Source: a virus. From it: a stretch of DNA of 44,496 nucleotides. Of this stretch, positions 1-44,496 are shown one piece after another. Location of the stretch: positions 1 through 44,496 of IMG/VR virus record IMGVR_UViG_3300009124_000034; one strand, written 5' to 3'. The translations under genes were made by a program, and so were the position numbers. The notes beneath the pieces were generated by a model. The model was not told the DNA's origin, made no database searches, and was given only the letters and a program-made list of their open reading frames with translations. Positions within the stretch are counted from its first letter, which is position 1. Every line of letters begins with the position of its first letter.

Positions 1-77
1 AACAAGCTGCCCTTACAGGAAAGTAACGGCGAGATCCAGCTGTTTATGGATGGAGTTATTGCGGACCAAACATCTTG
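1..77. repeat. 77-bp terminal overlap identical to 44420..44496 (circular assembly closure)
   Basis: Direct comparison shows the first 77 nt of the window equal the last 77 nt. A reading frame continues across the join without a stop. Confidence 0.95.
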
Positions 78-975
78 GCGTGAATTTTGGGCTAACAACG
101 CACCATTCAGCCTTTTAGAGCTGGTACGTAAGAACGGTAAGGAAGCATTAGTTCCGGCCATCCCTGTAGATAACGACGGTCGTGCTGCTAAAAACGATGG
201 CAGCCCTATATCCATAACACCTTCAGCATTGTTTACAACCGGAAACATAATTGAAGGTTCGTATAAAGAAGAATTTATTGAGTACGGGCAGAGCACGCAA
301 CCTATGGTCGCCACTGTTGTTTATCGAGAAATGGAATCCTCTGGAGCGGAGTCTAGCCGCACTGTTTTTGCGCGGCAAAACACGGTTGAAGTTTATAGAA
401 AAAACGAATATAACGATGAAAATATCCCAGCAGATGAAATGTCTGCAGAAACCTTTGATGTTAGTTCGTTTGTAACACAAAGAGAGCAAGCAATTATGAT
501 CGGCAAGCTACTTGTCAATCAACGCCAGTTTACTACACGCGGCGTCGAGTTTAAAACATTCCCTACCAATAGCCCTGTTGAGCCGGGCAGCTATGTTTTT
601 ATTGATATCGGAAATACATCTTGGGACCAGTATTCTTCGGGAAGAGTGCTAACTGGAGGCGTTTTAAACAGCCCCCTGCATGACGAAATCAAAGACGGAA
701 ATTATACATTTTTGGTTTACAACCATGGAACGCAAGAAACCAAGAAGTACACAAATGTATCTGTTTCAAATATGACCGCTTCTGCCTTATCAGATCTTGA
801 CGGCTGGATGTACGTCATGGGCACTGATGCCCCCTCAAAAAGAGTGTTTCGTATTACAGAAGTTGCTCTAGAGGAGGAAGGCGAAGTTCGCGTCAAAGCG
901 ATGGAATACCCCTGCTATGAAGATCTGGGAGCTAAGGTTGCTGATTTCCGTAGTAGCAGATTCAACGTTCGCTAG
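1..975 (+). CDS. Tail tip / host-specificity protein (lambda gpJ-like), C-terminal part of the junction-spanning ORF
   Basis: Same frame as 41312..44496 once the 77-bp overlap is removed (total 4083 nt, 1360 aa). The track ORF 46..975 is only the piece after an internal Met. It follows the gpM/L/K-like genes. Confidence 0.75.
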   Translation, partial: NKLPLQESNGEIQLFMDGVIADQTSWREFWANNAPFSLLELVRKNGKEALVPAIPVDNDGRAAKNDGSPISITPSALFTTGNIIEGSYKEEFIEYGQSTQPMVATVVYREMESSGAESSRTVFARQNTVEVYRKNEYNDENIPADEMSAETFDVSSFVTQREQAIMIGKLLVNQRQFTTRGVEFKTFPTNSPVEPGSYVFIDIGNTSWDQYSSGRVLTGGVLNSPLHDEIKDGNYTFLVYNHGTQETKKYTNVSVSNMTASALSDLDGWMYVMGTDAPSKRVFRITEVALEEEGEVRVKAMEYPCYEDLGAKVADFRSSRFNVR

Positions 976-1008
976 GATGAGGATAACGGTGATTTCGTCT
1001 CCCTAGTC

Positions 1009-1443: not shown

Positions 1444-1462
1444 GCTGCTGTAGTACACTAAT

Positions 1463-11351: not shown

Positions 11352-11975
11352 TTACTCAAACGCAGCCTCCGCAATTGCTGGAAATTGTTGTTTGAAGATC
11401 TCACGGCAGGCAATTGCAATTCGACGATGCTCTAGCTGCGTGTCCTCACTGGAGCGTAAAGAAATGTAATGGTACCAACTTCTCAAGGTGCCCTGCATAT
11501 AAAGCGTCGTTCCAGTGCATAACGGCAAGATGCGCCTTGCTGTTTCCTTAGCCACCCCGTCCTGGAGCATCCGGTCATACAGCGAAAAGGCTTGCCCAAT
11601 CACATAGGAAGCCTGCCGCTGATAACCATCCTGGCGCGTTGGATGAATATCCGCAAAGCTGTTCTGCCTGTTTTTGGTGTCTTGCCGCCTAAACCAAGGA
11701 GTCTCAGCCCGCGCACTTTTGGCATAACGAGTTGAAAATTCCTGGAACGTAAAGCTGCGATGCCTCAAGATTTGAGCGCTGATATCCCGCTCAGTTTCAA
11801 TTTTGACGCACATGCAAGCCATCTCCATAGGAGACCAATGCTTGTGCTTAATCAGGTACTTAATGAGCTTCGGGCCAGTTTCCCAGTTATCTTCGTTTGC
11901 TGGGTTACTGACCCTAGCCATTTTTACGATTAGACGTTCGGCATTGGGAGTAGCCCAGACAAGCGATACGGTCAT
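11352..11975 (-). CDS. thyX: FAD-dependent thymidylate synthase ThyX
   Basis: The ThyX signature RHRSFTFQEFSTRY (RHRxxSxxxxSxR) is present, and the 207-aa size is typical. Confidence 0.9.
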   Translation of the reverse strand: MTVSLVWATPNAERLIVKMARVSNPANEDNWETGPKLIKYLIKHKHWSPMEMACMCVKIETERDISAQILRHRSFTFQEFSTRYAKSARAETPWFRRQDTKNRQNSFADIHPTRQDGYQRQASYVIGQAFSLYDRMLQDGVAKETARRILPLCTGTTLYMQGTLRSWYHYISLRSSEDTQLEHRRIAIACREIFKQQFPAIAEAAFE

Positions 11976-12322
11976 TCAGGAACATCTTGATAACGTGCTC
12001 GTCGTAGGATACGGCGGATTGTCACTGGATGGCACCCATATTTTTTTGCGAGCTGGTCCGCTGACCAGCCCTCATATTTTCTAAGCTTCCTTATGTCAGC
12101 AATATTTTCCTGTGTAAAAAACGAGCTAGGACTTTTCGTACCAGCGGGTCGTTTTATATTCCAAAGAATGCCGTCATCATCAAGACGTTCCACCTGTTGG
12201 GTGGTACGAAACGTATGACCGCAAGATGGGCATTTCCTATAGCGCCTAACCCTTTTACCGGTTGGGTGACACAGGGTTGAAGTGACTACGGTGTTTTTGT
12301 GGTTGCATTCAGGGCAGTGCAT
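11972..12322 (-). CDS. Transcription regulator: NrdR-type N-terminal zinc ribbon fused to a C-terminal HTH, no ATP-cone
   Basis: MHCPECNHKNTVVTS...RVRRYRKCPSCGHTFRTTQQVE parallels the NrdR pattern MHCPxC...T.V..SR...VRRRR.C..C..RFTT.E. The C-terminus ADQLAKKYGCHPVTIRRIL is HTH-like. Confidence 0.6.
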   Translation of the reverse strand: MHCPECNHKNTVVTSTLCHPTGKRVRRYRKCPSCGHTFRTTQQVERLDDDGILWNIKRPAGTKSPSSFFTQENIADIRKLRKYEGWSADQLAKKYGCHPVTIRRILRRARYQDVPE

Positions 12323-13193
12323 CAGTTCCCATTCCGTGTTGACGTGAGTAGCGAAGACGTAAGCGTTTCAAAGTGTCGTAATAGATCGTCCTGACCCGTT
12401 CTCTAGACAACCCCAACTCCCGCCCCATAGCCTGGAACGATGTAGGTTCACCGGTTTCCAATCCAAGCGCACCACTGACGATGTATTTCTGGCGGTCGCT
12501 GAGGCAGATCAAAAGATCATCCATTTTTTCCGCCATTTCAAGAGCGCAGATGTTGGTAAATACATCCTCATCAGATCTAACGCTGTCGATTAGCATCACC
12601 CCGTCCTCTATATTTTTGACGTTGACGTCAAGGCTCAAGGCATCACTAGACCTATCTATGTAATCCTGGAGCTTTTCGGGACTGAGTTTTACTAGATCAG
12701 CGCACTCTTCTAGCGTTGGTTTCCTGCCATGGGACGCCTCAAACTTAGGCTTCCAGTTTTGGATTTTGCTGAGCAGTTCACTGGCATGAGCAGGCATCCG
12801 AATAATCCGGTCCTGCGTGCTGATGTAACGAGTAATGCTCTGCCTTACCCACCAATAGACATAGGTGGAGAGGGCGTAGCCCCGCTCAGGATCAAACTTT
12901 TTGATGCCATGGGCAAGACCCATGTTGCCCTCTTGCACAAGATCGTAGATCTCAATGCGCATACACTTGTGGGTGTATTTTTTGGCAATCGAAACCACAA
13001 GCCTAAGATTGCAATTAATTAACTTGTGGTATGCACGTTGACCCCGCTTAATCGCCCGAGCATCTGGTGCGTCCGCTGAAATCCAAGCTTGCACTTGACG
13101 AGCAAGGATGATCTCCTGATCTTTAGTGAGGAGAGGATATTGGCCTATATCCCGTAGGTAGGCTGCGAAACCTTCTTTAGTTTTCAACTTCAA
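12309..13193 (-). CDS. RNA polymerase sigma-70 family factor
   Basis: YLRDIGQYPLLT (region 1.2), NLRLVVSIAKKY and DLVQEGNMGL..FDPERGYALSTYVYWWVRQ (region 2), and LGLSRERVRTIYYDTLKRLR (region 4). Confidence 0.9.
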   Translation of the reverse strand: MKLKTKEGFAAYLRDIGQYPLLTKDQEIILARQVQAWISADAPDARAIKRGQRAYHKLINCNLRLVVSIAKKYTHKCMRIEIYDLVQEGNMGLAHGIKKFDPERGYALSTYVYWWVRQSITRYISTQDRIIRMPAHASELLSKIQNWKPKFEASHGRKPTLEECADLVKLSPEKLQDYIDRSSDALSLDVNVKNIEDGVMLIDSVRSDEDVFTNICALEMAEKMDDLLICLSDRQKYIVSGALGLETGEPTSFQAMGRELGLSRERVRTIYYDTLKRLRLRYSRQHGMGTDALP

Positions 13194-13371
13194 CCACAGT
13201 CGGCGGTGTACCTAATGCATGGCTCAATTGAAGAGCCACAGACAAAGCTTTTTCAAGCGTCACGTAAGAACAAGCATCCTCAGATTTGTCCGTGATCCTA
13301 AGACCTGAACCTGTGGCTTCATAACAAGCAGCTAGATAAGTCTGATTTTGGAGTTGAAGTGCGTAGCGCAT
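13177..13371 (-). CDS. Hypothetical protein
   Basis: 64-aa ORF overlapping the sigma gene start by 17 nt, in operon orientation. Confidence 0.45.
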   Translation of the reverse strand: MRYALQLQNQTYLAACYEATGSGLRITDKSEDACSYVTLEKALSVALQLSHALGTPPTVVEVEN

Positions 13372-13425
13372 AGCTTTATTTAAAGCTCCCGTACAGTAGC
13401 ATAATTACCCAGTTTGCCTAGGGGT

Positions 13426-13692
13426 CTACTCCTGATCTTGCGCATCTTTTTTGCGACTCGCCCTGCCATCAATTCGCCGCTTTACCGAAGCTTGCCAAGC
13501 AGCATCATCCGCCTCCAAAGCTGCCTGGTACGCCGCACTTGGGATGCAACGTTCCAGTTCCTTGTAGATCACATCGCGAACCCAGCTGGTAGGTCGCACG
13601 TTGAGCCCATTGGCTAGGCCAATCAGAAGCTCAGCGCGATTGGGATCGAGCAGGATCTGAAAATACGTCTTATTGCCGTGGCGGATTGCCAT
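13426..13692 (-). CDS. Hypothetical protein
   Basis: 88-aa ORF in the leftward block, no motif recognised. Confidence 0.5.
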   Translation of the reverse strand: MAIRHGNKTYFQILLDPNRAELLIGLANGLNVRPTSWVRDVIYKELERCIPSAAYQAALEADDAAWQASVKRRIDGRASRKKDAQDQE

Positions 13693-13776
13693 CCTGCGCG
13701 TTGTCTACTACTAAACAGTCTAACAATGTGCTACCAAGTAATTGAGTCATCGACGTGCTTCCGCCACCCCTTGGCC

Positions 13777-13795
13777 TGAGACTCACGAGACTCAT
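13777..13795. promoter_or_regulatory. Paired GAGACTCA sites (operator-like)
   Basis: tGAGACTCAcGAGACTCAt, two direct copies 1 nt apart. The same pair recurs at 23922-23939 (opposite strand) and as an inverted pair at 23451-23468. Confidence 0.45.
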
Positions 13796-13845
13796 TTCGT
13801 TGCGCACGACAGCCCTTACGAATGTCCCTTGCTCCCTCCAAGAAC

Positions 13846-14034
13846 TCAGCCGCCCGCTGAAGATCCGCAGTTGTTGCCCTTGCAATTTCGTATTGCAGAT
13901 ACCGCATGATGATTTGCCGTCCTGTTAGTGGCGCCATAGGCAGCATCCATCACATCCCCAAGTGAACTGTAGTAGCCCAGATCTTCCGGCACCATAAGGC
14001 TCCAGCCCTGGGACGTGCGATGAATGCTCACCAT
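13846..14034 (-). CDS. Hypothetical protein immediately downstream of polA
   Basis: 62-aa ORF whose ATG lies 1 nt after the polA stop. It overlaps by about 100 nt an alternative-frame ORF (13731..13946), so the true gene structure is unresolved. Confidence 0.35.
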   Translation of the reverse strand: MVSIHRTSQGWSLMVPEDLGYYSSLGDVMDAAYGATNRTANHHAVSAIRNCKGNNCGSSAGG

Positions 14035-14035
14035 G

Positions 14036-15964
14036 TCAGTGAATCTCCGACCAGCGTTTACCGACTGAAGGCTCAGCTAGTGGCGGAATATCCCCAAGCC
14101 ACTTTGCTTCCGAGTCTTCCATTATTTGTTTTAGCCTTGCCGCCCACTCTTGGGCCTTTTCTTCCCTAACAAGCAACAAGATTTCATCGTGAATGCACGC
14201 TGCAATCCTGGCCTCAGTTTCCCCAACCTTGACTAACTCCTTCCAAAGCTTGCCCAACGCACACTTGAGGATGGCCGCACCAGCACCTTGGATTGGCGTA
14301 TTACACCGAACCGTTAGGCGATTCATCTCCCCAGGCAACCACCGCCGCATCCCAGACAGCGGTATCCGCATAAAAGCATCTTTTTGATTTTGCGTTTGCT
14401 CTGCGGCATACCCCTTTTCCTTTTGCCACTTAGCAATCCCCTGGTACGTCTTGAGCCACTGGTCGCGAATTTCTTTAGCGTCCTCAAGTGTCATGGTGAT
14501 GCCACTACTACCTGCGTAGTTACGAAGACCCTTCGCACCAGAGCCATAGAGCAGCCCAAAGTTTGCTGACTTGGCTATCTGCCTAGAGCAGCCGATTGCT
14601 TCTGCTGTAACCGTGTGAAGATCCTCGCCATCTTTAAAGGCTTGGATCATGCGTTCATCTTTAGCCACTGCCGCAGCGAGTCGTAATTCCATCTGACCAA
14701 AATCAGCATCCACAAGAAGCCAACCATCAGGAGCCTCAACACAACTGCGGAATTCTTTGTCACGCGGGATCTGCTGGTTGTTGGGTTTGATGCAGGACAT
14801 CCGCCCACTTTCTGCCCCGAGCTGCAAATAACTGGCACGTACAAAACCGTCAGAGTCCATTTTTTCAAGGATAGAATCCACCATTTGACGGCGTTTCTCA
14901 GCCTTTTTCCACGCAAGGTAAAGCTGAATAACGTGATGATCCGCCGCGTATTCCTGGAGCGCTGCACGACTTGCACTGGGTTTTCCTGTTTTGTTATCAA
15001 TGGGCTCCTTGCCTAAGAGCGCCGTGAATTTTTCCAGAAGCTGTTTTGGTGAGTTGAGGTTAAACCCTTTGTACTTTTTTGTACCCAGTCGTTTGGAGCC
15101 CTCCTCCTTAGCCCGTAGGTTAAAAATAGTTGGTTGAGTTTCGAGATCTGCGATCTCCTGCTCCCATTTATCGCGTATAGAAGGGTCGTGGCCCATCTCC
15201 GTGAGTTTCGCTTTGAGATAACCCAATCGCGGGGAGCTTTCTCTGGGCAACTTGTGTTTAGCTGGCAGAGCCTCATCAAGCTCAAACAAAAACTCCTTAG
15301 AAAGCGCAGCGATTTCATGTTCATAGTCCTCCCGTAGAGCATCAAGACTGGAGCGATTCCAAGGCAAACCGGTGCGCCACATCAAAGCCATGGCCTGCAA
15401 AGCGTTACACTCCAGCCCATAGGCACTCAGCAGCCCATTTGACGCAACTTTTTTGCGCAATACTTCATCAACTTCTAGCAGGATCTGCACATCCTTTGCC
15501 GCGTATTCAAGCTGCTCATCACTGAGTTCTGGAGCGCCCCAGTCAGACTTTTGCTGTTCTTTGGATAAAGAAATGCCAAGCTCTCGCTTTACAACATCTG
15601 CCAGACCATGCTTTAAACCAGGGCGGCCGTTGTGTAACAGCTTGCTGGCAAGCATTGTGCAATTTACCTTCCCGTTTAAAGTGAAACCGTTTTCCTGTAA
15701 CCAGCCAAGATCAAAGACAGCATTGTGAGCGACCCAGCTACGATTTTTAGACTCTAAAAAGTCATCAATTAAATCCCAGCTAGCGTCATCAACCTCAAAC
15801 AAGTCAATGATGACAATGGTTTTATTGACTGCGGCGCCCAATTGAAGGAGGCGTAGTTTACCGCTTTCAGGCTGCAGCTGGAGCGTTTCGCAGTCAAATG
15901 CAACGTGCTTGGCAGCAGAAATTTTGCTGAGATGCTCAGCGCCGTAAAAAACTTTGTAGTTCAT
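14036..15964 (-). CDS. polA: Family A DNA polymerase (Pol I-like) with 3'-5' exonuclease domain
   Basis: Exo motifs VAFDCETLQL, NAVFDLGWL and YAAKDV. Pol motif A is LVDADFGQMELRLAA, motif B is KSANFGLLYGSG, and motif C is CIHDEILL. Confidence 0.95.
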   Translation of the reverse strand: MNYKVFYGAEHLSKISAAKHVAFDCETLQLQPESGKLRLLQLGAAVNKTIVIIDLFEVDDASWDLIDDFLESKNRSWVAHNAVFDLGWLQENGFTLNGKVNCTMLASKLLHNGRPGLKHGLADVVKRELGISLSKEQQKSDWGAPELSDEQLEYAAKDVQILLEVDEVLRKKVASNGLLSAYGLECNALQAMALMWRTGLPWNRSSLDALREDYEHEIAALSKEFLFELDEALPAKHKLPRESSPRLGYLKAKLTEMGHDPSIRDKWEQEIADLETQPTIFNLRAKEEGSKRLGTKKYKGFNLNSPKQLLEKFTALLGKEPIDNKTGKPSASRAALQEYAADHHVIQLYLAWKKAEKRRQMVDSILEKMDSDGFVRASYLQLGAESGRMSCIKPNNQQIPRDKEFRSCVEAPDGWLLVDADFGQMELRLAAAVAKDERMIQAFKDGEDLHTVTAEAIGCSRQIAKSANFGLLYGSGAKGLRNYAGSSGITMTLEDAKEIRDQWLKTYQGIAKWQKEKGYAAEQTQNQKDAFMRIPLSGMRRWLPGEMNRLTVRCNTPIQGAGAAILKCALGKLWKELVKVGETEARIAACIHDEILLLVREEKAQEWAARLKQIMEDSEAKWLGDIPPLAEPSVGKRWSEIH

Positions 15965-16197
15965 CAGCTGTGATTAGTTTTTTCGTGTTCAATGGCCACT
16001 CTGTAAGTGCAAGCTATAAAACAAGCTGCCCTAGCAAGATAATGAGCATTTGCTATTGCTCTTTGAGTTTGTTCGCGATCTGGATCGCATTCTGCTTCAG
16101 CTAATTCTTCTGTAAGCATTTGCACTTGGGGACTTTGTAAAAAAATTTGAGCTGCCATGTTTTGTGCAGCCAAATCAAAAGCTTCGTGAAAATCCAT
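15964..16197 (-). CDS. Hypothetical protein
   Basis: 77-aa ORF whose stop overlaps the polA start by 1 nt. Confidence 0.5.
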   Translation of the reverse strand: MDFHEAFDLAAQNMAAQIFLQSPQVQMLTEELAEAECDPDREQTQRAIANAHYLARAACFIACTYRVAIEHEKTNHS

Positions 16198-16202
16198 AAA
16201 AA

Positions 16203-16373
16203 TTAAAAAAGGTGTTCTTCGGGAAATTCGCCCTCCCAGTTGGACTCATGAGTCCCATTTGGTGCGTACCAGCCGGAATCATCCATGTACCAACCAGCTT
16301 CGGTGCGGGCGAAGAAGATTTTATCCTCAGCATTGAGGCTGCTGAGCGAGTTGTCGTGAATCGGAATGGTCAT
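16203..16373 (-). CDS. Small hypothetical protein (hand-translated)
   Basis: 56-aa ORF MTIPIHDNSLSSLNAEDKIFFARTEAGWYMDDSGWYAPNG... with an ATGA overlap with the upstream gene stop. Confidence 0.4.
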   Translation of the reverse strand: MTIPIHDNSLSSLNAEDKIFFARTEAGWYMDDSGWYAPNGTHESNWEGEFPEEHLF

Positions 16374-16669
16374 TGGAGGGGGTCATCAAATGCGGGTGGA
16401 ACGTCCTTGATCAGTTGTTGATGCAGGATCACACTGCGCTGGCTTTCTAAGCGGTCAATCAATCGACTGAGATACCACTTGGCCTTGCACAGATCCTGAA
16501 TGGTGTTGCCTTTAAGCCAAGCACGCAACAAATACTTCAAAGTGTTACCAAGAAGGAATCCAGAAGCAGGGTCTGGTGCGTGCTGAACTGCGTCCTCAAT
16601 GACGTCAATGGCTTCAAACCGCCCCGCTGTGTAGTGGGGCGGCTGGTTGACTAGATCATCTGCAGCCAT
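16370..16669 (-). CDS. DUF3310-family protein
   Basis: NQPPHYTAGRFEAIDVIE...GNTLKYLLRAWLKG...LCKAKWYLSRL matches the DUF3310 pattern (PxHY..iE.id....KYl.R...K...KA.wYl). I prefer the internal start MAADDLV at 16669 over the track start at 16858. Confidence 0.7.
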   Translation of the reverse strand: MAADDLVNQPPHYTAGRFEAIDVIEDAVQHAPDPASGFLLGNTLKYLLRAWLKGNTIQDLCKAKWYLSRLIDRLESQRSVILHQQLIKDVPPAFDDPLQ

Positions 16670-16913
16670 CGTGCCAAGCAATCCCGCATGGATTATTGGC
16701 GGTAATCTCGTCGTCTGTGGGCTCCCAGTCAACAATCTTGTCGATTGCTGGCTGAATGTCGTTTTCAATAATGTCCATAACCCAACCAGGCTGGGCATCT
16801 GTAATGGGTGTGCGCTCTTCCTGTTTGACGAGAACGCGAAGCCTTTGCTGGAATGCATAAAGGAGACGATCCATGTTCATTTCGTAGATGTTGTTTGTGG
16901 TGTAGGCAGACAT
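16656..16913 (-). CDS. Hypothetical protein
   Basis: 85-aa acidic ORF in operon orientation, with a 14-nt overlap with the next gene. Confidence 0.5.
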   Translation of the reverse strand: MSAYTTNNIYEMNMDRLLYAFQQRLRVLVKQEERTPITDAQPGWVMDIIENDIQPAIDKIVDWEPTDDEITANNPCGIAWHDGCR

Positions 16914-16939
16914 GGTCTTTGATGGTTGATGTGATTTGA

Positions 16940-17191
16940 TCAGTAGTTGTTGATGGGCTGCCAGTTATCCACAAGCTCAGCAAGCTCTAGGAACTCACGA
17001 TGAGTTGTGGGCAGGGGTTCATCGCCTAGGAGGACAGAACCATCACAGACGGCACTGGCGTACTGCGGTGGGTCGTGGCGCGTAGCAGCTGAAACTTGGA
17101 CGATGTCGTCAACGACCGCCTGGAAGTCAACGGACCAGCCACAAGGACCGTGAATGATCTTGCGGCTTTGGATTTCGATGATGGCGCTCAT
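16940..17191 (-). CDS. Hypothetical protein
   Basis: 83-aa ORF in the leftward block. Confidence 0.5.
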   Translation of the reverse strand: MSAIIEIQSRKIIHGPCGWSVDFQAVVDDIVQVSAATRHDPPQYASAVCDGSVLLGDEPLPTTHREFLELAELVDNWQPINNY

Positions 17192-17228
17192 AGGTGCTGA
17201 GCAGTGGAACTCGACTACCCTAGCACTA

Positions 17229-17537
17229 TTAGAGCGTGAGGTAGGTATGGACGACCGGAAATGTATCAGCCTCGTAACTGCTCATGATGGATACGTCGAT
17301 CCCACTCACCAGGGCCTTTTCCACTTCAGCTTCAAAACGACAGAACTCTTCTGGGCTGTCGCTATAGAAGTCTTCGCAGATTAATTCCGGGAGTCCGTCA
17401 GGGTTGTAAGCGGTGAAGCGCACGACCGCCAAGAAGCCTTCGACCTCTGTGACTTTGTAGAAAGTGATGGTCGTAAGCTCCATGGAGCGCTTCGACACGT
17501 TCATACCAGTCTGGCCTTTATTAAAAACCGGATACAT
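17229..17537 (-). CDS. Hypothetical protein
   Basis: 102-aa ORF in the leftward block. Confidence 0.5.
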   Translation of the reverse strand: MYPVFNKGQTGMNVSKRSMELTTITFYKVTEVEGFLAVVRFTAYNPDGLPELICEDFYSDSPEEFCRFEAEVEKALVSGIDVSIMSSYEADTFPVVHTYLTL

Positions 17538-17562
17538 AATGTAGTAGAACTACACCTGGACT

Positions 17563-17739
17563 ATGGAAGCGCACCGAAGCTTTGCCTTGAATAAGTTCAG
17601 GCGCAGCATTGAGAAGTGCTCGAACGTAGAAGAGCTGCGCGAAATGAACATCAAGACAATGCAGCTCTATTTACGTCAACAGGACACCATCAGCCAACTA
17701 ATCAAAAAAGGCTGGCTGCCCTCTGATCCCAAGGACTAA
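17563..17739 (+). CDS. NblA-like small protein (phycobilisome degradation protein candidate), opposite strand to neighbours
   Basis: Hand-translated 58-aa ORF MEAHRSFALNKFRRSIEKCSNVEELREMNIKTMQLYLRQQDTISQLIKKGWLPSDPKD that exactly fills the gap between two leftward genes. The pattern F.L.K(F/Y)R..(I/V)...S.E(E/D)L...Q.LIK..W resembles NblA sequences recalled from memory. Confidence 0.45.
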   Translation: MEAHRSFALNKFRRSIEKCSNVEELREMNIKTMQLYLRQQDTISQLIKKGWLPSDPKD

Positions 17740-18101
17740 GACCGCAGGCCATGCACTTGAGAACTTATGCCGCGCTCCTTCCATTCCCTAATAAGGGTGC
17801 CAACCTTTTCAAAGCAGGCGTTACGGACGTCGTAAGGAATTGAGCGCATAAACTTTTCAAGCCTGAACATCAAAAGTTCATCACGGTCATCCACAACATC
17901 TGAGAACTTGTCGAAATGCCGGACGCCGTTACCAATGGCGCTAACCAAAAAAACCTGGAACGCCGGGCATTCAAGCAAATCTTTAAGTGTGTACTGATCT
18001 GCAAGCTCTAGAGACTCCTCGGGGAGGATAATGTCGTAAGGCATAAAGTTGTTTTGTAGTAAAGGGGTCATAAAGACCCCCGAGATGCTAGCACAAAGCA
18101 A
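17736..18101 (-). CDS. Hypothetical protein
   Basis: 121-aa ORF in the leftward block. Confidence 0.55.
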   Translation of the reverse strand: MLCASISGVFMTPLLQNNFMPYDIILPEESLELADQYTLKDLLECPAFQVFLVSAIGNGVRHFDKFSDVVDDRDELLMFRLEKFMRSIPYDVRNACFEKVGTLIREWKERGISSQVHGLRS

Positions 18102-18647
18102 TCAGTGTTTTTTGAGCCAGAGCTGCATGGCCTCTTCAATGGCCTGGGCTTTGTTGACCTGGAGCGCAATACAACGCCCCAGGAACTTGCACTTGAGGTT
18201 TTTGTCCACGGCAGAGATCACCATCTTCTCCCGTACAGACGTTGAGGAAGGGATAACCACTGGAAGTGTGTTGCTGACCTCCTGCAACGGCTTAGAGACG
18301 CTGAGATGGCTGGAGTCCTCCCGGATGGATTTAAACCGCGCAATACCGTCTTCAAAGCGCTTGTCAGCGGGCTTGACAAGCTCCAGGTTGACGGCGGTAC
18401 CAACAGGGCAAATCTCTTCGTTGAGCCATGAGGGCGCGAACTCCATGCTGACCATGCCCCTGTGAATGCCCTCTGGGACGTCACAGGATGGGTCCAGGGT
18501 GACAAACAGCAGTTTGGATGTGTTGGTGACGCGCCAGCTGGCCGCAATGCCCCAAGCGTCGTAATGGTTGTACGCCCCATCAACTGCAGGCCAGTTGGTG
18601 TTGCGTTGTTCTGCCATCGAAATAACCATCAGCAAGAAAGAAAGCAA
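18102..18647 (-). CDS. Hypothetical protein (alternative start at 18617)
   Basis: 181-aa ORF abutting the next gene. The first 10 codons are hydrophobic and may be untranslated (MAEQRN at 18617). Confidence 0.55.
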   Translation of the reverse strand: MLSFLLMVISMAEQRNTNWPAVDGAYNHYDAWGIAASWRVTNTSKLLFVTLDPSCDVPEGIHRGMVSMEFAPSWLNEEICPVGTAVNLELVKPADKRFEDGIARFKSIREDSSHLSVSKPLQEVSNTLPVVIPSSTSVREKMVISAVDKNLKCKFLGRCIALQVNKAQAIEEAMQLWLKKH

Positions 18648-18666
18648 GAGGTGCCCGGAGGCACCT
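18634..18666 (-). terminator. Possible intrinsic terminator/attenuator after the primase-helicase gene
   Basis: AGGTGCC-tccg-GGCACCT (minus-strand reading), a 7-bp stem followed by the T-rich tract CTTGCTTTCTTTCTT. It lies between the stop at 18680 and the next start. Confidence 0.35.
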
Positions 18667-18679
18667 CAAGCCTATTCCG

Positions 18680-21886: not shown

Positions 21887-21916
21887 ACCCCGAGACCCAC
21901 TTCTCGGGGTTTTGTT
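21887..21916 (+). terminator. Rho-independent terminator
   Basis: ACCCCGAGA-cccact-TCTCGGGGT followed by TTTGTTG, 95 nt after the stop at 21792. Confidence 0.8.
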
Positions 21917-21985
21917 GTATCCGCTGGAACGTTGCCATTCACATGCACTGATTTTGTGCTAATCTAAAAAACTGAAGGGGTACAA

Positions 21986-22018
21986 AGAGGCAACCGGCCG
22001 AGCGGTGGCCTCTTTTTT
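21986..22018 (+). terminator. Second rho-independent terminator in tandem
   Basis: AGAGGCAACCG-gccgag-CGGTGGCCTCT with one mismatch, followed by TTTTTTATT. Confidence 0.8.
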
Positions 22019-22051
22019 ATTGGCTATAGTAAATCTGGGAAAGAGTATTTC

Positions 22052-22228: not shown

Positions 22229-22230
22229 TC

Positions 22231-23180: not shown

Positions 23181-23181
23181 T

Positions 23182-23502: not shown

Positions 23503-23505
23503 GGT

Positions 23506-23706
23506 TCAAACCTCCGAAGCGCAAACTTCACAAAGATCTTGTTTGATTGAAAGTCGGTAAGGAGCCCAGTCCTTACCGCCATTGATGGATTCTTGCCCAG
23601 TCACACTCCTGGAACGTTGACCATACAAATCGCCTTTAGCGATCGTTGCTTCGCATTGCTTGCAAGTGCGTTCTTTCCTGGAACGTTTGAGTTTCATTAG
23701 AGCCAT
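23506..23706 (-). CDS. Small zinc-ribbon protein
   Basis: 66-aa ORF with CKQC...CEVC cysteine pairs. The start codon lies within the first unit of the 19-bp tandem repeat (alternative start at 23697). Confidence 0.5.
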   Translation of the reverse strand: MALMKLKRSRKERTCKQCEATIAKGDLYGQRSRSVTGQESINGGKDWAPYRLSIKQDLCEVCASEV

Positions 23707-23776
23707 TCATAAGGGAAAAAGCCATTCATAGCGAAAATCGCCATTCATAGCGAAAAAGCCATTCATAGGGTGATTG
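23702..23776. repeat. Tandem repeat, 4 units of 18-19 bp (GCCATTCATAGCGAAAAA)
   Basis: GCCATTCATA at 23702, 23721, 23740 and 23758, each followed by an (A/G)G(C/G)GAAAA-type A-tract. It is intergenic, upstream of the leftward gene 23506..23706. Confidence 0.9.
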
Positions 23777-23921
23777 GCTGGAGCGTCGCCTTGGTGTGGT
23801 TCCGCTTGATGACCAATGTAGCACCACAGGGTCAGGCGTCAAGGTTGGCTGGTACGTGATCGCATACGGGTAAGAATGAGAATCGTTCTCAACAGCAAGG
23901 CGAGTTAACCCGTAGTCGTTA

Positions 23922-23939
23922 TGAGTCTCATGAGTCTCA
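23922..23939. promoter_or_regulatory. Paired TGAGTCTCA sites (operator-like)
   Basis: TGAGTCTCA-TGAGTCTCA, a perfect direct 9-mer pair, intergenic, 10 nt downstream (leftward) of the terminator at 23952-23972. Confidence 0.5.
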
Positions 23940-23951
23940 TCTACGGGCAAT

Positions 23952-23972
23952 AAAAAAGGCCCGAAGGCCCTG
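23952..23972 (-). terminator. Rho-independent terminator (minus strand) with UUCG tetraloop
   Basis: The minus strand reads AGGGCC-TTCG-GGCCTT followed by TTTTTTATT. It starts 4 nt after the stop of gene 23976..24338. Confidence 0.75.
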
Positions 23973-23975
23973 TAG

Positions 23976-24338
23976 TTACTTTGTACTGGTCCGCTTGCGA
24001 GCTTTACCGGCGTCAATCCTGACCTTACGAGTGCTGGGACGTTTACCGACAGATTCCGGTTTCCATTGATTCCAAAGTTCAGCAGGACAGGGACAACCGC
24101 CCTCCATGCTTTCCTGGCGTAGAGACCAAGACGGGATCAGCTCATGTGCTAACTGCCTCCCGCCTTCCTTTCCGTGTCTGCTGTGGAGCGTTAACAAGGT
24201 CTCCCACTCTGCTGGGGTGATCGGGTAACGATCGATTGCCCAGCGCAGATCTTTGTAGGCGATTTTTTCTAGGCGCTTGATTTCGCGCTCTTCTTGGGTG
24301 GAGCGCTTCTTTATTTCTGTGGTGCTGAAAACTGACAA
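23976..24338 (-). CDS. Hypothetical basic protein
   Basis: 120-aa ORF with a TTG start per the track. It is followed by its own terminator and is divergent from ORF 24496. Confidence 0.5.
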   Translation of the reverse strand: MSVFSTTEIKKRSTQEEREIKRLEKIAYKDLRWAIDRYPITPAEWETLLTLHSRHGKEGGRQLAHELIPSWSLRQESMEGGCPCPAELWNQWKPESVGKRPSTRKVRIDAGKARKRTSTK

Positions 24339-26267: not shown

Positions 26268-26735
26268 GTGAATCTCTTGGAAGACAACATCGTCCCTGTG
26301 GGACACGACAACACCAACGAACCAGAAGAAACTGATCTAGTTGCAATCCCTGGATCGCAGGCGATTAACAGGAAGAACTATCGCAAGATTGAGCGTGTCA
26401 AGCGGCTCTATGCACGCCAACTTGAGGGCCTTCCCGCCAAGCAACTGGTCCTAGACCACGCCAAAAAAGAGCAAGTCAGCGAAGAAACCGCCTGGCGCGA
26501 CTGGCGTGAAGTCGCAAAACTCAACGACCAAGACTTCGCCCTGGAACGTGAGACCATGGCCGCCCGCATCTTCGCGATGCGCCAAAAAGTCCTCAATGCG
26601 GCAATGCGTCGAGGCCAAATGCAAACCGCCGCCAGTGTTTTGGATTCCCTGGCACGTCAAGTCGGTTGTGACGAAGCGCAATTAAACCAAGTATTGCCCG
26701 AAATCAACGTCAAAATCCAACCACCCGAGCAATAA
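26268..26735 (+). CDS. terS: Terminase small subunit (by position)
   Basis: 155-aa ORF with a GTG start whose stop directly abuts the terL start (TAAATG). It is helical and charged. No diagnostic motif. Confidence 0.5.
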   Translation: MNLLEDNIVPVGHDNTNEPEETDLVAIPGSQAINRKNYRKIERVKRLYARQLEGLPAKQLVLDHAKKEQVSEETAWRDWREVAKLNDQDFALERETMAARIFAMRQKVLNAAMRRGQMQTAASVLDSLARQVGCDEAQLNQVLPEINVKIQPPEQ

Positions 26736-27986
26736 ATGCCCGCAACCTTGGATTTAGGTCTCCGTCCCGCCCAATACGAAGTATTTAGCTCCCAAAAACG
26801 ATTCCGCGTTTTAGTTGCAGGCCGCCGCTTTGGCAAGTCCTACCTGGCCTGCATCGAACTCTTCATCAAAGCCCTGGCACGTCCAGGCGAAACCTACTTT
26901 TACTGCGCCCCGACATACCGGATGGCCAAGGACATCGCCTGGAAAACGTTAAAAAAGGTAATCCCACCAGAATTTATCACCTCCAAAAACGAAACCGACC
27001 TGAAGCTAGAACTTGTCAACGGTTCCACCATCGAATTAAAGGGCACCGAGAACGCCATGGCCCTGCGAGGCCGTTCTTTAGCAGGTGTGGTTTTAGACGA
27101 AGCCGCCTTCATGGACTCCGAAGTCTGGTTCGAGGTCATCCGCCCCGCCCTCGCCGACAAACAAGGTTGGGCCTTATTCATCAGCACCCCGGATGGAACG
27201 GCCAGCTGGTTTTACGACATGTGGTGCTACGTCCCAGAGGACAAAACCAACGACTGGTCCCGCTGGTGCTACACAACAATTGAAGGAGGCAATGTCCCCA
27301 GTGAAGAAGTCGAAGCAGCCCGCGCTCAACTTGACACGCGCACGTTCCGCCAGGAATTTGAAGCATCATTCGAGAACCTCAGCGGCCTGGTCGCCATCAG
27401 TTTCGCGGACGCCAACATCAGCAAAGACGTCCGCGACCTCCCCGTCCTCCCCCTCTTACTAGGCGTCGACTTCAACGTGGACCCCATGACCGGCATCTGC
27501 GCGGTTAAGAAAGGTGACACTTTATGGATTTTCGACGAAATCATCATGACGGGTGGTGCGACCACCTGGGATTTCTGCGAAGAAGTCCAAAACCGCTACG
27601 GCGTAGACCGCCGCATCATCAGCTGCCCGGACCCTACCGGCGGTGCCCGCAAAACCCAAGGCGTTGGCACGACCGACCACAGCATCCTCCGCAAATCCGG
27701 CTTCACCGTTTCCACCCCCAAAGCCCCGTGGAAGATCCGGGACAAAATCACCTGCGTCAACACCGCCCTCCTCGACGCCACTGGAACGCGCCGCATGTTC
27801 ATCCACCCCCGCTGCAAGGAACTAATCAAATCCCTCCGCACCCTGACCTACTCCCCTGGAACGGGTCTCCCCAACAAAAATCTCGGAGTTGACCACTGCT
27901 TCGACGCCTTGGGCTACCTATGCCTGCAAGTATTTAATCTGGCCAAACCCGAAACCATTGGCACAACAAACTACCGCGTATGGTGA
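26736..27986 (+). CDS. terL: Terminase large subunit
   Basis: Walker A VLVAGRRFGKS and Walker B LAGVVLDEAAF, with a C-terminal nuclease-type region. The 416-aa size is typical. Confidence 0.9.
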   Translation: MPATLDLGLRPAQYEVFSSQKRFRVLVAGRRFGKSYLACIELFIKALARPGETYFYCAPTYRMAKDIAWKTLKKVIPPEFITSKNETDLKLELVNGSTIELKGTENAMALRGRSLAGVVLDEAAFMDSEVWFEVIRPALADKQGWALFISTPDGTASWFYDMWCYVPEDKTNDWSRWCYTTIEGGNVPSEEVEAARAQLDTRTFRQEFEASFENLSGLVAISFADANISKDVRDLPVLPLLLGVDFNVDPMTGICAVKKGDTLWIFDEIIMTGGATTWDFCEEVQNRYGVDRRIISCPDPTGGARKTQGVGTTDHSILRKSGFTVSTPKAPWKIRDKITCVNTALLDATGTRRMFIHPRCKELIKSLRTLTYSPGTGLPNKNLGVDHCFDALGYLCLQVFNLAKPETIGTTNYRVW

Positions 27987-41312: not shown

Positions 41313-44300
41313 TGGACCGCAAGCTTCTTCCCTACGAGCACCAACTGATCGATGCTCTTGGGATTACCAAGGAAGAGTATCTCGCTTTTGTTGCAGTCCA
41401 ACAAGAATACAAAGACCCCAAAGTTGGTACAGCGCTAGACATCCGGGCTGCTGACGGTGGAACGGTCGCTATTGTCCTTACCGTTATTGGAATTTTGTTC
41501 CAGGTTGGTGCGGCACTATTAGCGCCAAAACCCAAGATTCCTGACCTCACTGAAAAAACTCAGCGACGTTCCAGGGAAGCACGATTTTCACCAACCTTTG
41601 GATTTAATTCCGCTCAAGAGCTGGCTAGCTATGGCGACCCCGTAAATTTGGTTTACACCAATACTGACGATAACCCCAATGGCGGTGTGCGTTTGTCTGG
41701 ATCGTTGGTGTGGTCTTCGATTGAAAGTTATGGCTCAGCCCAATTCATGCAATTATTGCTTGTTATGGGCGCATCGCGAATTTTAAAGATCAAACCAGAA
41801 TTTACCGCATTTGGGCAGATAGCTTTACAGGATTTTGATCCAGGTCTCACTTGGATGTTCTACTCCAAAGAAGGCCCAGCAAAATTTAACGACCTCGAAA
41901 GCGGTACTTTAAGTTACCTAACTCCCGAAGATCTAAAAGGCAATTCTGTAGATAACGTCTGCCGAATTATACAAAAAAGGCGTTCCCCTAACCAAGCTGT
42001 TGGTTTTAGTCAATGCTATACGCCAACGACTTCGACAGCTTTTGGTCCGTATGACCCTATCCCCGTTAATGTTCGTCTGTTTAGCAGGGATGAAGCCGAT
42101 GGCGGCGTCATCAAAATTTTAAACGGCATTAAATTCTCTGATCAAGGAAGCAGCAACTGGTTTGGCGGTGATAGAAACTTTTCTCTTGGTCAAAAAATTA
42201 CCCTTGAATTCAGCAAAACAAAAAATAATTATGACCTTGACAATGAGGAAGACTCAGAAAGGGCTAAAGCTATAGCCGAACAGCAAGCTGACAACCTACG
42301 ACGTCAGTATGTCGAAAGCATGAACTATGGCACAACTTATATGTTTGGCACGGCCAAATTTATCATTATCAAAACCAGTGTAAACAAAGACTTAGATGCA
42401 GGCGATGTCAGATTCACACTGGAATGTATAAAGGAAGGCCGAGAACCCTTTACCCACCCAAAAAGCGATGAGCTAGATGATCTGCAGAACCCCAACGTTC
42501 CAAGTCTTCAAGACTTTAAACGAGCTCTAGACCAGCTGGAACGTGATGATGAAGAGGGTCAAGCGGGCACCCAGATTATTATTAAAGGGTTAGGTGTTGA
42601 TATTAATTTTTCAGCCTTTGAATCGCAAGGCGTGGAATGGACTGATATTTTTGGCGAAAAACAATACGGATTTTTTAACGAGCGCGGTTCAAAGTCAACC
42701 AGCGAAAAACGTTTAAGGGATCGCACAGTCGTCACGCCTCCCACGCTAAAAACACGTCAAGTTAGAAAGGAGCTTAGAAAACAATTAGCTGATCTTGAGC
42801 AAGTTATTACTGATATAGAAAATGGTGTTTTTGATAACCCCGATACCCTGCCAGCAAACGCCAATGCAGCCGCCCAAGACATTGCGTTTCAGATCACCAA
42901 TCGTGCTCTAAGGGGTAAAGAAACTCGTTTAAAAAGCATTAACGATTTTAGTCTTGCAGGCACGGTAGAAACGTTCCAAGATGTAAAACTAAGCAATGAC
43001 GAAGGCTCGCTGCGCAAAAGACTACAAGAGAAACAAAAGAATCCTGTCGAAAATGCTGACATAATTACAGCACTTGAAAATAAAATTTCAAACAGGGAAA
43101 ACAGAGTAATAAAAAAAGTACACGATCATTACGTTAAGCTTTACAAATTTCAAGCTTATAACAGAAGCGAAGGGGAGCCTCTCCCTGATGAACAATGGCT
43201 AAAAAACAGCAAGTTTTCTTTTGTAACTCCGGGAACTGGGTCGGCTTCAAACAACACTTATTTGGCTGGTACGGAAACCTTAAGGCAGTCGCTTGAGGAT
43301 AATAAAATTTTTAATGAACTTATCGTTGACAAAGATGGCGTCAAAGCCATGGAAGATAAATGGGGCGCTTTAATCAGTCAAAAACAGCAAGCAATTAAAG
43401 ACTTAAAAAGAATTGTAACCAACTACGAAAAACTTTTGCTAAAAGAAGGCTATGCAGATTTAAACAGAGCTTTCTTCAGCAAATGTCTAGTCAAGGTTGA
43501 AACCGCTTCATACGAAACTGTGTCAGCTTGCGATGTCGTCCGCTTTTCCATTAAGGCAAAGCTATTCAGGCGTATTGCCGGACGTCAACGAGAATACGCA
43601 AGGGATCGAATTGTTGAAGACTATTCTGCAGGCGATAATGGAATCCAAGATCGCACATGTTTCTTCAGGGTTTTCTACAAAGAGGTAGGCGAGCCCACGT
43701 ACGACGAAGCGCCACTCCTGTTTGCCGTCAGGCGTGGTTCGGAATCCGATGCACACCTTGGGCTATATTTTGAGCCTAAAAACGGAAAAATTGAAGCCTC
43801 AAGAGTACGCTGGCAATTTAAATTTGAGCCTGTTCATGACCCCATGGCCTGGCACGAAGAAACCGACAATACAAAGGTTGGTTACATAACAGGCATCGAA
43901 GATTACCAAAGCGAAAAACACAATGGCAATGCTTTTGGTTTTTACGGTCGGATCATAACCGGCACCAGCGGCGGCTTTCTTAACGCCATGTCAACCAAAG
44001 GCCCCGCAAACACTTTTGACTATGACATGTTTAGTAATACAACCGATACTCAAATCCAATTTAGTTTTGAGAACGGCCCTGAGTTGAGCATTCTTGCCGT
44101 AGCGGAGCAGCAGCTTGCTGGAACGCAAGATGCAAAAGGCGCAGACTACGAAAAATTATCAACAATGGCATTAGTAGTCAGAGCTGGAAAAGGTCTACAG
44201 GACCTGCGAAACATCAGCACATTTGTTGAGCAGGGCAAGAGATGTTTTAACGCAGATACGTTCCAGCGGTATAGCCCAGAAAAAAGCAGCAGCTACGCAC

Positions 44301-44496
44301 CAGATATTTTCGTAGATACTGTCTTGAGCACTACGGATGGTGTTGGCAGCTATGTCGCCGAAGGATCTCACGTCTTAGATCAAGAAGCTTTGATCCTTGC
44401 CAAGAAGTTTTGTAAAAATAACAAGCTGCCCTTACAGGAAAGTAACGGCGAGATCCAGCTGTTTATGGATGGAGTTATTGCGGACCAAACATCTTG
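41312..44496 (+). CDS. Tail tip / host-specificity protein (gpI-gpJ-like fusion), N-terminal part running off the window end
   Basis: ATGA overlap with the upstream stop. No other long ORF in any frame over 3.1 kb. Hand translation is open from MDRKLLPYEHQLIDALGITKEEY..., with a TM-like segment GGTVAIVLTVIGILFQVGAALLA. It continues in frame into 1..975. Confidence 0.75.
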   Translation, partial: MDRKLLPYEHQLIDALGITKEEYLAFVAVQQEYKDPKVGTALDIRAADGGTVAIVLTVIGILFQVGAALLAPKPKIPDLTEKTQRRSREARFSPTFGFNSAQELASYGDPVNLVYTNTDDNPNGGVRLSGSLVWSSIESYGSAQFMQLLLVMGASRILKIKPEFTAFGQIALQDFDPGLTWMFYSKEGPAKFNDLESGTLSYLTPEDLKGNSVDNVCRIIQKRRSPNQAVGFSQCYTPTTSTAFGPYDPIPVNVRLFSRDEADGGVIKILNGIKFSDQGSSNWFGGDRNFSLGQKITLEFSKTKNNYDLDNEEDSERAKAIAEQQADNLRRQYVESMNYGTTYMFGTAKFIIIKTSVNKDLDAGDVRFTLECIKEGREPFTHPKSDELDDLQNPNVPSLQDFKRALDQLERDDEEGQAGTQIIIKGLGVDINFSAFESQGVEWTDIFGEKQYGFFNERGSKSTSEKRLRDRTVVTPPTLKTRQVRKELRKQLADLEQVITDIENGVFDNPDTLPANANAAAQDIAFQITNRALRGKETRLKSINDFSLAGTVETFQDVKLSNDEGSLRKRLQEKQKNPVENADIITALENKISNRENRVIKKVHDHYVKLYKFQAYNRSEGEPLPDEQWLKNSKFSFVTPGTGSASNNTYLAGTETLRQSLEDNKIFNELIVDKDGVKAMEDKWGALISQKQQAIKDLKRIVTNYEKLLLKEGYADLNRAFFSKCLVKVETASYETVSACDVVRFSIKAKLFRRIAGRQREYARDRIVEDYSAGDNGIQDRTCFFRVFYKEVGEPTYDEAPLLFAVRRGSESDAHLGLYFEPKNGKIEASRVRWQFKFEPVHDPMAWHEETDNTKVGYITGIEDYQSEKHNGNAFGFYGRIITGTSGGFLNAMSTKGPANTFDYDMFSNTTDTQIQFSFENGPELSILAVAEQQLAGTQDAKGADYEKLSTMALVVRAGKGLQDLRNISTFVEQGKRCFNADTFQRYSPEKSSSYAPDIFVDTVLSTTDGVGSYVAEGSHVLDQEALILAKKFCKNNKLPLQESNGEIQLFMDGVIADQTS
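44420..44496. repeat. 77-bp terminal overlap identical to 1..77
   Basis: Direct comparison. See the first feature. Confidence 0.95.

Follow-up and report, generated by a model that had tools for sequence, protein, structure and literature searches.

CTGGNRCG, a strand-polar octamer over-represented in the genome of an uncultured marine phage and its relatives

Why should a phage genome carry one short DNA word far more often than its composition and coding predict, and mostly in one orientation? The question is raised by the octamer CTGGNRCG (N is any base and R a purine) in the IMG/VR virus record IMGVR_UViG_3300009124_000034, all 44,496 nt of which were analysed and are called the window here. 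The window is the complete circular genome of an uncultured marine siphovirus: bases 1–77 are exactly those at 44420–44496, the assembly is circularly closed, and the true genome comprises about 44,419 bp. The window comes from marine metagenomes. By exact counting on both strands, CTGGNRCG occurred 110 times on the + strand (forward sites) and 25 times on the – strand (reverse sites), with a genome-wide density of 2.5 sites/kb. An exact-string literature search returned PCR primers only, and no paper describing CTGGNRCG was found.

Abundance and strand polarity of CTGGNRCG in the window

The enrichment of CTGGNRCG is real and strongly non-random. An order-2 Markov model predicted 8.0 forward and 6.4 reverse sites, shuffling of synonymous codons within genes predicted 24.0±3.5 and 7.8±2.4, and permutation of whole codons predicted 13.8±2.5 and 6.8±2.4. 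The forward sites lay about 14-fold above the order-2 Markov expectation and 4.6-fold above the synonymous shuffles, and the reverse sites were enriched about 4-fold. A maximal-order Markov model (z≈1) was uninformative because every sub-word of the octamer is itself enriched, and the lower-order models and codon shuffles were used. The top-ranking 8-mer of the window was CTGGAACG, with 29 copies on the + strand and 7 on the – strand, and its relatives gave +/– counts of 21/4 for CTGGAGCG, 15/3 for CTGGTACG, 12/0 for CTGGCACG, 8/1 for CTGGGACG, 6/1 for CTGGCGCG, 14/6 for CTGGTGCG, and 5/3 for CTGGGGCG. An earlier note on this DNA, in which the copies had been located by eye, listed the positions of CTGGAACG, and all of them were reproduced on both strands. 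Its tallies for the first five relatives were exact, while the complements of CTGGTGCG (5, now 6) and CTGGGGCG (1, now 3) had been undercounted, and of its total of about 110 and 22 the + strand figure stands and the – strand figure becomes 25. It had also remarked that half of the copies of CTGGTGCG read GCTGGTGCG, which agrees with the 8 of 14 counted here, and the codon-preserving shuffle that it had called for left the enrichment in place.

A single-substitution scan showed that the edges of the word were sharp, with T2, G3, G4, C7, and G8 essentially invariant, C at position 1, any base but preferably A at position 5, and a purine at position 6. The 1,997 distinct site contexts pooled from the phage family described below extended the consensus to S-CTGG-a-R-CG-t, in which G or C preceded the motif at 70% of the sites, with no flanking structure and no preferred spacing.

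The forward sites fell into all three frames of the + genes (18/33/15) as well as of the – genes (13/17/7). The rightward genes contained 59 forward sites in the sense direction (10.1±2.7 in the shuffles) and 8 reverse sites in the antisense direction (2.8±1.5), and the leftward genes contained 33 forward sites in antisense (3.3±1.6) and 11 reverse sites in sense (2.4±1.5). The density of forward sites was alike in the two gene sets, at 2.3 and 3.0 per kb, respectively. Since the sites occupy all frames and both gene orientations, CTGGNRCG is a DNA-level, strand-polar signal and neither a peptide nor a codon-usage effect, and a peptide or codon artefact was rejected on these grounds. The earlier note had made the same claim, with which both the frame distribution and the shuffles agree, and the three reading frames that it gave for motif copies inside the gene at 22365–23180 match the coordinates. 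Grouping the genes by orientation, as it had proposed, left the strand bias in place, with the forward sites outnumbering the reverse ones also in the leftward genes. A repeat element or miniature inverted-repeat transposable element was rejected, since conserved flanks and conserved spacing are both missing and all frames and gene orientations are used. A promoter of a phage sigma factor, or a sigma-54 –24 box (CTGGCACG), was rejected for the same use of all frames and both orientations and the same lack of conserved flanks and spacing.

The statement that polarity follows the DNA strand held in that the forward orientation dominated both gene sets, but the minority orientation was concentrated in the leftward replication block (11352..21124, – strand), which encodes ThyX, a Zn-ribbon/helix-turn-helix (HTH) protein, a sigma-70 factor, Pol A, a nucleotide kinase, and a PrimPol-helicase. 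This block was the only region of the window with appreciable enrichment of the reverse motif, and 26 forward and 10 reverse sites were counted between 11.35 and 21.1 kb, where the forward number had been given correctly before and the reverse number as 8. Taken over the genes, the minority orientation was also enriched, by 3–5-fold over the shuffles, and this bears on a reading in which a single orientation evades Type III or Type ISP restriction enzymes, which need head-to-head sites, or in which the word is a strand-specific modification target. The logic of these enzymes rewards sites in the same orientation, as for the EcoP15I sites of T7, and a short asymmetric word with a strong orientation bias would suit it; in T7, too, an asymmetric word is oriented near-uniformly across a phage genome. 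However, evasion predicts that one orientation is depleted and the other is not over-represented, as in T7, whereas CTGGNRCG was enriched in both orientations (14-fold and 4-fold). The window was found to have no methyltransferase or modification gene, the hot zone described below is left unexplained, and this reading is highly improbable.

Around the circle, the forward orientation led in every 2-kb bin except the terminal partial bin of 496 bp (1 forward and 2 reverse sites), the last 77 bp of which repeat bases 1–77. The orientation plot suggested beforehand showed uniform forward polarity, and a switch point was not seen. Such uniform polarity points to a unidirectional process that acts on the whole molecule, namely packaging, injection, replication by rolling circle, or attack by an exonuclease from a defined end. 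The base skews at four-fold sites, taken from all window open reading frames (ORFs) of at least 80 aa and with the transcription component subtracted, showed C>G (about –0.14) and A>T (about +0.12) on the + strand, independent of the motif.

The earlier description of a signal spanning the whole genome was right as to the 110 sites, but their distribution was not uniform, and the core of the signal was found at 21.9–24.1 kb. In this hot zone (21900..24100, + strand), 18 forward and 0 reverse sites occurred within 2.2 kb. It covers the gene of a PD-(D/E)XK exonuclease of the RecB/Cas4 type (22365..23180, + strand), which carries 7 copies of the motif in three frames, together with small ORFs that run in both directions and are poorly conserved. 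Elsewhere in the window, the gaps between the sites were evener than random (coefficient of variation 0.78 versus 0.99±0.10, P=0.009), and the largest gap was 1,560 bp versus about 2,320 bp expected.

A second polar element was also observed in this part of the genome. A 19-bp tandem iteron-like array of AGCCATTCATAGCGAAAA, repeated 3.7 times (23701..23768, + strand), is located immediately upstream of a small leftward ORF, and GCCATTCA iteron cores are dispersed over five further positions, 20272, 21378, 21934, 22821, and 23296, all on the + strand. The window contained 9 copies of GCCATTCA(T) versus 1.8±1.3 expected, none of them on the – strand and all within 20.3–23.8 kb.

Conservation and turnover across the phage family

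About 250 metagenomic relatives, with G+C contents (GC) of 33–63%, have the motif, its polarity, and lineage variants of it in common. Loci were collected around three proteins of the window and the motif was counted on the window + strand versus the – strand. The 80 IMG/VR loci anchored on the large terminase (TerL; 26736–27986, + strand; Pfam Terminase_6N), with TerL 80–91% identical and GC of 33–60%, gave 903 versus 139 sites in 711 kb (about 87 expected per strand). The 80 loci anchored on Pol A gave 1356 versus 531 sites in 793 kb (about 97 expected per strand), and the 77 loci anchored on the 814-aa PrimPol (AEP)–PriCT-2–SF4-type helicase (18680..21124, – strand; Pfam Prim-Pol, PriCT_2, and AAA_25) gave 1226 versus 402 sites in 966 kb. 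The PrimPol loci were gathered with an alignment, a single-sequence search having given 3 loci. In the Pol A-anchored loci the motif lay mostly on the strand that does not encode Pol A, as it should if polarity is set by the genome rather than by the gene. CTGGAACG led the 8-mers in the low-, mid-, and high-GC subsets alike, 25–28-fold over the expectation from base composition.

Alignments with 127 relatives showed that the specified positions of the motif were conserved at about 0.81, compared with 0.72 for the flanks and 0.68 for the N position. Because this conservation is modest, the 1,997 contexts are free of flanking structure, and the spacing is even, selection acts on density and coverage, while individual sites turn over.

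No comparable signal was found in the outgroups S-2L, a Vibrio phage, MED4-184, S-H1, Syn5, P60, S-CBS1, and S-CBS3, and CTGGNRCG was enriched only about 2.8-fold in KBS-S-2A. The comparison with unrelated or distantly related phages of similar GC, also proposed beforehand, thus found no such signal there, and the motif is family-specific. Polar 8-mers of KBS-S-2A (locus L167), CTGATGGC (11/0) and TGATGGCA (12/1), were rejected as an analogue; they represent overlapping stop/start signals (TGATGG) at gene boundaries. Overlaps of this kind are a trap for k-mer polarity scans.

The hot zone was conserved as well. At the core of the pattern, across the family, is a forward-only hot zone with 3–8 sites/kb, flanked by the replication/recombination genes on one side and by the terminase on the other. 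In the family profile, the stretch from –5 to –3 kb relative to the start of TerL had 3.2–3.3 forward sites/kb and about 0 reverse sites; the reverse orientation reached a density of about 1 site/kb in the leftward replication block and nowhere else. In the mid- and high-GC lineages the motif was spread evenly over the whole genome, and in the low-GC relatives it was retained upstream of TerL but was missing from the structural genes. A 44%-GC genome (a 29.4-kb reconstruction) contained CTGGNNCG 37 times versus 5.7 expected. Its sites were confined to the replication block and the hot zone; 12 of them, all forward, lay no more than 2 kb from the hot zone, and the structural genes were at motif background over 11 kb.

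The TGG..CG core and the polarity stayed across the lineages while the specificity shifted. The variant TTGGARCG, with the same polarity, was found in the lineage comprising loci L231, L213, L182, L254, and L063 (15/0 in L231), in which the PrimPol is shorter (about 720–775 aa) and no Pol A match was found within the flanks. The variants CTGGATCG and CTGGCTCG were found in L245 and L246, with counts of 13/3 and 10/0, respectively, in L246.

Comparison of gene contents showed that the motif is tied to the early module rather than to the packaging enzyme, because it is kept with an unrelated TerL and missing with a closely similar one. L246 combines the same replication/recombination module as the window with an unrelated TerL (23% identity), and immediately upstream of this TerL lies a hot zone with forward sites only; L047, L049, and L054 have a TerL 82% identical to that of the window, a homologous small terminase (TerS), another leftward early module of the GP88 type, and no motif. 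The TerS of the window itself (26268–26735, + strand) is putative, assigned by its position and its conservation across relatives only. The clade of L203, L204, and L208 (IMG/VR contigs of 25–50 kb, 63–64% GC) keeps PrimPol, Pol A, the SSB-like protein, and the sigma factor. Missing from it are the polar motif with its hot zone, the exonuclease, and the CCATTCAT iterons. Where the hot zone would lie, this clade encodes a PAP2-domain protein and a protein resembling dCTP deaminase, and the gene swap may point to a different strategy of DNA protection. The SSB-like protein, possibly a single-strand annealing protein (SSAP; 21202..21792, + strand; PHROG 1607/1192), was kept in the motif-positive relatives. 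The exonuclease was present in nearly all of them and was the best gene-content correlate of the motif, with the exceptions of L070 and L080, which have a forward-only hot zone (14–15 versus 0 sites) and no detectable exonuclease homologue. The gene-content correlation did not single out one reader.

These comparisons bear directly on the possibility that the octamer is a polarity code for a DNA translocase, such as the packaging terminase, a motor of the FtsK/KOPS type (KOPS, FtsK-orienting polar sequences), or an ejection motor. Like KOPS (GGGNAGGG), CTGGNRCG is a polar, over-represented octamer with an internal degenerate base; its uniform polarity would match unidirectional packaging, and the hot zone lies upstream of the terminase genes. 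However, the motif does not travel with the terminase, as L246 and L047/L049/L054 show, and the low-GC relatives are motif-less over a structural half that must also be packaged. KOPS polarity inverts at the origin and converges on dif, whereas the window has neither a polarity switch nor a dif-like convergence point, and no FtsK-like gene was found among its proteins. A translocase code is therefore very improbable.

The iterons were distributed differently from the motif. Family-wide, CCATTCA occurred 779 times in the forward and 117 times in the reverse orientation (about 163 expected), and tandem arrays with a spacing of 18–25 bp were present in at least 19 loci. At least three forward copies of the iteron word were found in the 6 kb upstream of TerL in 55 of the 67 family-type TerL loci (median 5 forward, 0 reverse), with the copies peaking 3.5–4.5 kb upstream of TerL. 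The CTGGNRCG hot zone was centred on the CCATTCAT arrays, with 5–6.7 sites/kb within ±1 kb and no switch of polarity, and in L035 one CTGGAACG lies between two iterons. Iterons were also present in the motif-negative L054 and L047 (5 copies each), absent from L203, and down to two copies in L246; they appear to be associated with the type of TerS/TerL and not with PrimPol, which suggests a candidate pac/TerS-binding array or a regulatory array of the late operon. The array is also a candidate origin. Clustered copies at a fixed locus, as expected of iterons or pac repeats, were found for CCATTCAT and not for CTGGNRCG, which is dispersed and turns over.

Candidate readers of the octamer

Among the four mechanisms put forward in the earlier note, a Chi-like signal fits best, a primase site is possible, a translocase or packaging code is disfavoured, and a modification target fits neither the enrichment nor the polarity. 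The reading that we favour, at a little short of an even chance, is that CTGGNRCG is a Chi-like polar signal for the protection of DNA ends. One orientation of the word would be read by a DNA-end-processing helicase-nuclease, most likely a host enzyme of the RecBCD/AddAB type, and the reading would convert the enzyme from degrading the phage DNA to sparing or recombining it. Chi is recognised by RecBCD from its 3' side. The word would be kept on the strand whose 3' end lies at the right-hand DNA ends, that is, at the ends presumably left free by the terminase cut upstream of the terminase genes, which would be packaged last and injected first. An enzyme entering such an end and moving leftward would meet the word from its 3' side, and the highest forward-only density would sit where such ends arise. 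The spread over the whole genome would be useful with circularly permuted ends or exposed rolling-circle tails, and the opposite orientation would be maintained at a lower level in the leftward replication block.

The Chi-like reading is favoured because Chi in lambdoid phages clusters at the same place as the hot zone: lambdoid phages without RecBCD inhibitors strongly over-represent Chi, which is concentrated in the interval from the replication genes to the terminase (Bobay et al. 2013, PMC3784561). In the family studied here, the motif was clustered likewise between the replication functions and the presumed packaging site, at –5 to –2 kb from TerL. Like Chi, it is an asymmetric 8-mer with tolerated degeneracy, as seen in the substitution scan and the pooled logo, its over-representation and polarity go beyond composition and coding in both the window and the family totals, and its density is kept despite the turnover of sites. 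Chi itself was found on the terminase-coding strand in HK97 (4/0) and N15 (2/0), as is CTGGNRCG in the window phage, for which the packaging direction and the ends are assumed. The first 50 kb of T5 contained only 2 Chi sites and were unsuitable as a Chi-rich comparator. The CTGG core is common to the window word and E. coli Chi (GCTGGTGG), and GCTGG forms the core of the proteobacterial Chi sequences GCTGGTGG, GCTGGCGG, and GCTGGAGG (PMC8022716), but the window word ends in NRCG where E. coli Chi ends in TGG. The association of the motif with the early module would be expected if the alternative modules carry RecBCD inhibitors; homologues of Gam, Abc2, and gp5.9 were not detected among the window proteins.

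Several observations weigh against a Chi-like function. Chi occurs at 0.2/kb in E. coli and at up to three times that density in lambdoid hot zones, whereas the window has 2.5 sites/kb and the hot zone 3–8 sites/kb; the density in the window is more than 10-fold that of the E. coli core genome and about 4-fold that of the densest lambdoid hot zones of Bobay et al. In contrast to the lambdoid Chi clusters, the word occurs in a phage that is virulent-looking, encodes its own exonuclease and an SSB/SSAP-like protein, and belongs to a family with lineage variants of the word, and lambdoids with their own recombinase over-represent Chi less than recombinase-less phages do (PMC3784561). Chi is defined by the enrichment and skew of the same word in the host, while CTGGNRCG is known from phage DNA alone, and in five cultured Synechococcus phages it was unenriched (observed/expected ≤1). 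One motif variant spans relatives of 37–63% GC, and different variants coexist at equal GC, which would be easier to explain by a phage-encoded reader than by a host-specific Chi. Moreover, the argument from orientation assumes the packaging direction, defined by the terminase genes at 26268..27986, and the positions of the genome ends. The ends might lie elsewhere: an HNH endonuclease gene (10909-11217, + strand) is the last gene of the rightward block, at its convergence with the leftward block (about 11.3 kb), and HNH genes adjoin the cos sites in HK97-like phages. If the ends were located there instead of by the terminase, the reverse-oriented sites would sit at a left end.

The main alternative is that CTGGNRCG is the initiation site of the PrimPol-helicase, which is encoded next to the hot zone and whose AEP domain would read 5'-CTGGNRCG-3' on a single-stranded template via the PriCT-2/helix-bundle domain and begin primers at this word. 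In this scheme, rightward (rolling-circle) forks would use the + strand as their lagging-strand template, with the hot zone as an initiation zone, and leftward forks early in infection would be served by the reverse sites of the leftward block. The orientation of the motif cannot separate this explanation from the Chi-like one, since bacterial Chi lies on the lagging-strand template, where a primase site would also lie, and both predict the same strand. Recognition of an 8-nt template with a TGG core has a precedent in the PrimPol of NrS-1 (TTTGGTTA, GTGG), and that of pRN1 recognises GTG (PMC8718748). Sites of up to 8 nt, a TG(G) core, and reading on one strand are shared with the window word, but known primase sites have not been reported to be enriched 14–20-fold genome-wide.

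The specificity of the motif to the family, with cultured Synechococcus phages lacking it, and the variants TTGGARCG and CTGGATCG, which look like co-evolution with a phage enzyme, would agree with a primase site, and so would the even spacing of about 450 bp without gaps above 1.6 kb, which suits Okazaki priming, and the motif between the iterons of some relatives. The motif-negative relatives with the same TerL have no PrimPol module in the 4.5–6.8 kb upstream of TerL, though these flanks are perhaps too short, PrimPol lying 5.6 kb upstream of TerL in the window. However, a primase site should be present wherever discontinuous synthesis starts, and the motif background over 11 kb of structural genes in the 44%-GC relative means that the motif cannot be an obligatory start site of Okazaki fragments. 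Nor did the motif co-vary with the recognition domain: the AEP and PriCT-2 domains were 56–61% identical to those of the window in same-motif, variant-motif, and no-motif clades alike, and L203, L204, and L208 have PrimPol and Pol A where the polar motif is missing. In addition, the forward sites were equally dense to the left and right of the presumed origin, with the polarity unswitched at the iterons, and the C>G and A>T skews of the + strand are the opposite of those of an exposed lagging-strand template, although this evidence is weak. An initiation site for PrimPol is unlikely.

A reader encoded by the phage in the recombination/hot-zone module is the third type of explanation. The PD-(D/E)XK exonuclease would pause, load, or cut at the word, which would be a private Chi for this enzyme and its SSB/SSAP-like partner, or the word would be the target of a strand-specific nickase that interrupts one strand only, as in T5. 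The exonuclease gene is overlapped by the hot zone, the motif co-occurs with the exonuclease nearly always, both are missing in the L203 clade despite PrimPol and Pol A, and the lineage-specific variants at similar GC suggest a phage-borne specificity. But the hot zones of L070 and L080 exist where no exonuclease homologue was detected, and the distant phages KBS-S-2A, S-CBS1, and S-2L have homologous exonucleases and lack the motif. To our knowledge, nucleases of the Lambda-Exo/RecE type do not read sequence on such a scale. As for nicking, the annotated nick sites of T5 likewise have a short consensus on one strand only, but T5 has a handful of major sites for which enrichment is unreported, assemblies carry no nick information, and no nickase was recognised among the window proteins. 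We consider a reader of this kind quite unlikely.

A more general form of this idea is possible, though less likely than not. The octamer may be a phage-private 'self' code, in which a protein of the replication/recombination module reads a lineage-specific polar word and thereby limits priming, end processing, or recombination to the DNA of its own phage. The candidate readers would be the PrimPol-helicase, the exonuclease/SSAP pair, or an unrecognised protein of the hot zone, and the motif and its reader would co-evolve between sister lineages (CTGGNRCG, TTGGARCG, and CTGGATCG).

Genome context, host, and significance

The gene set of the window is of the siphovirus type, with tail fibres, an endolysin, the HNH endonuclease, the leftward replication block, and then rightward early and structural genes. 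Past PrimPol, the rightward order is the SSB-like protein, the exonuclease, small unknown ORFs, the terminase, portal, scaffold, and capsid. The sigma-70 family factor (12309-13193, – strand) is full-length, with regions 1.2, 2, 3, and 4, and its gene adjoins that of a Zn-ribbon (NrdR/Ogr-Delta-like) plus HTH protein (11972-12322, – strand); sigma genes like it are annotated in KBS-S-2A, S-2L, S-CBS1, and S-CBS3. Downstream of the terminase, at 28243-28270, the 7-bp Shine-Dalgarno-like word AAGGAGT is repeated four times in tandem.

Megablast of 25 kb of the window against cultured phages gave zero matches. The closest cultured TerL proteins, those of Vibrio phages, were at most 44% identical, and the TerL of S-2L was 42.5% identical. 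The capsid protein was 48% identical to that of an uncultured marine virus, 39% to that of S-2L, and about 30% to those of cyanosiphoviruses. A TerL scan of genome collections returned mostly phage contigs mis-binned into metagenome-assembled genomes of many phyla. The only direct host hint is L177, a relative (TerL 77% identical, 34% GC) on a 41.3-kb contig of the single-cell genome of Prochlorococcus sp. AG-418-M08, and both CTGGNRCG and CCATTCAT were missing from the 13.4 kb examined. The cyanobacterial host supposed in the earlier note is thus weakly supported: this single-cell relative speaks for it, but it is motif-less, and the capsid and TerL similarities to cyanosiphoviruses are distant. 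Marine picocyanobacteria, the candidate hosts, carry recBCD (PMC5101192), in line with the Chi-like reading.

CTGGNRCG belongs with the polar over-represented octamers that are read by DNA-processing machines, and its new aspects are its density, the arrangement of a hot zone with iterons, and the drift between lineages. Should it act like Chi, it would form an array denser than any Chi-type array known, and in a phage that looks virulent, and would give the probable Chi of an uncultured marine host group, possibly the picocyanobacteria, for which none is known; RecBCD/AddAB control, phage escape from end-degrading defences, and the limits of CRISPR spacer acquisition would become testable there. 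If the reader is encoded by the phage, the word would be a code by which replication or recombination recognises phage DNA as self across the whole genome; such a code, diversifying among sister lineages, is undescribed. Whichever reading holds, a widespread family of uncultured marine phages can be classified and oriented by two simple sequence markers, the motif and the CCATTCAT iterons.

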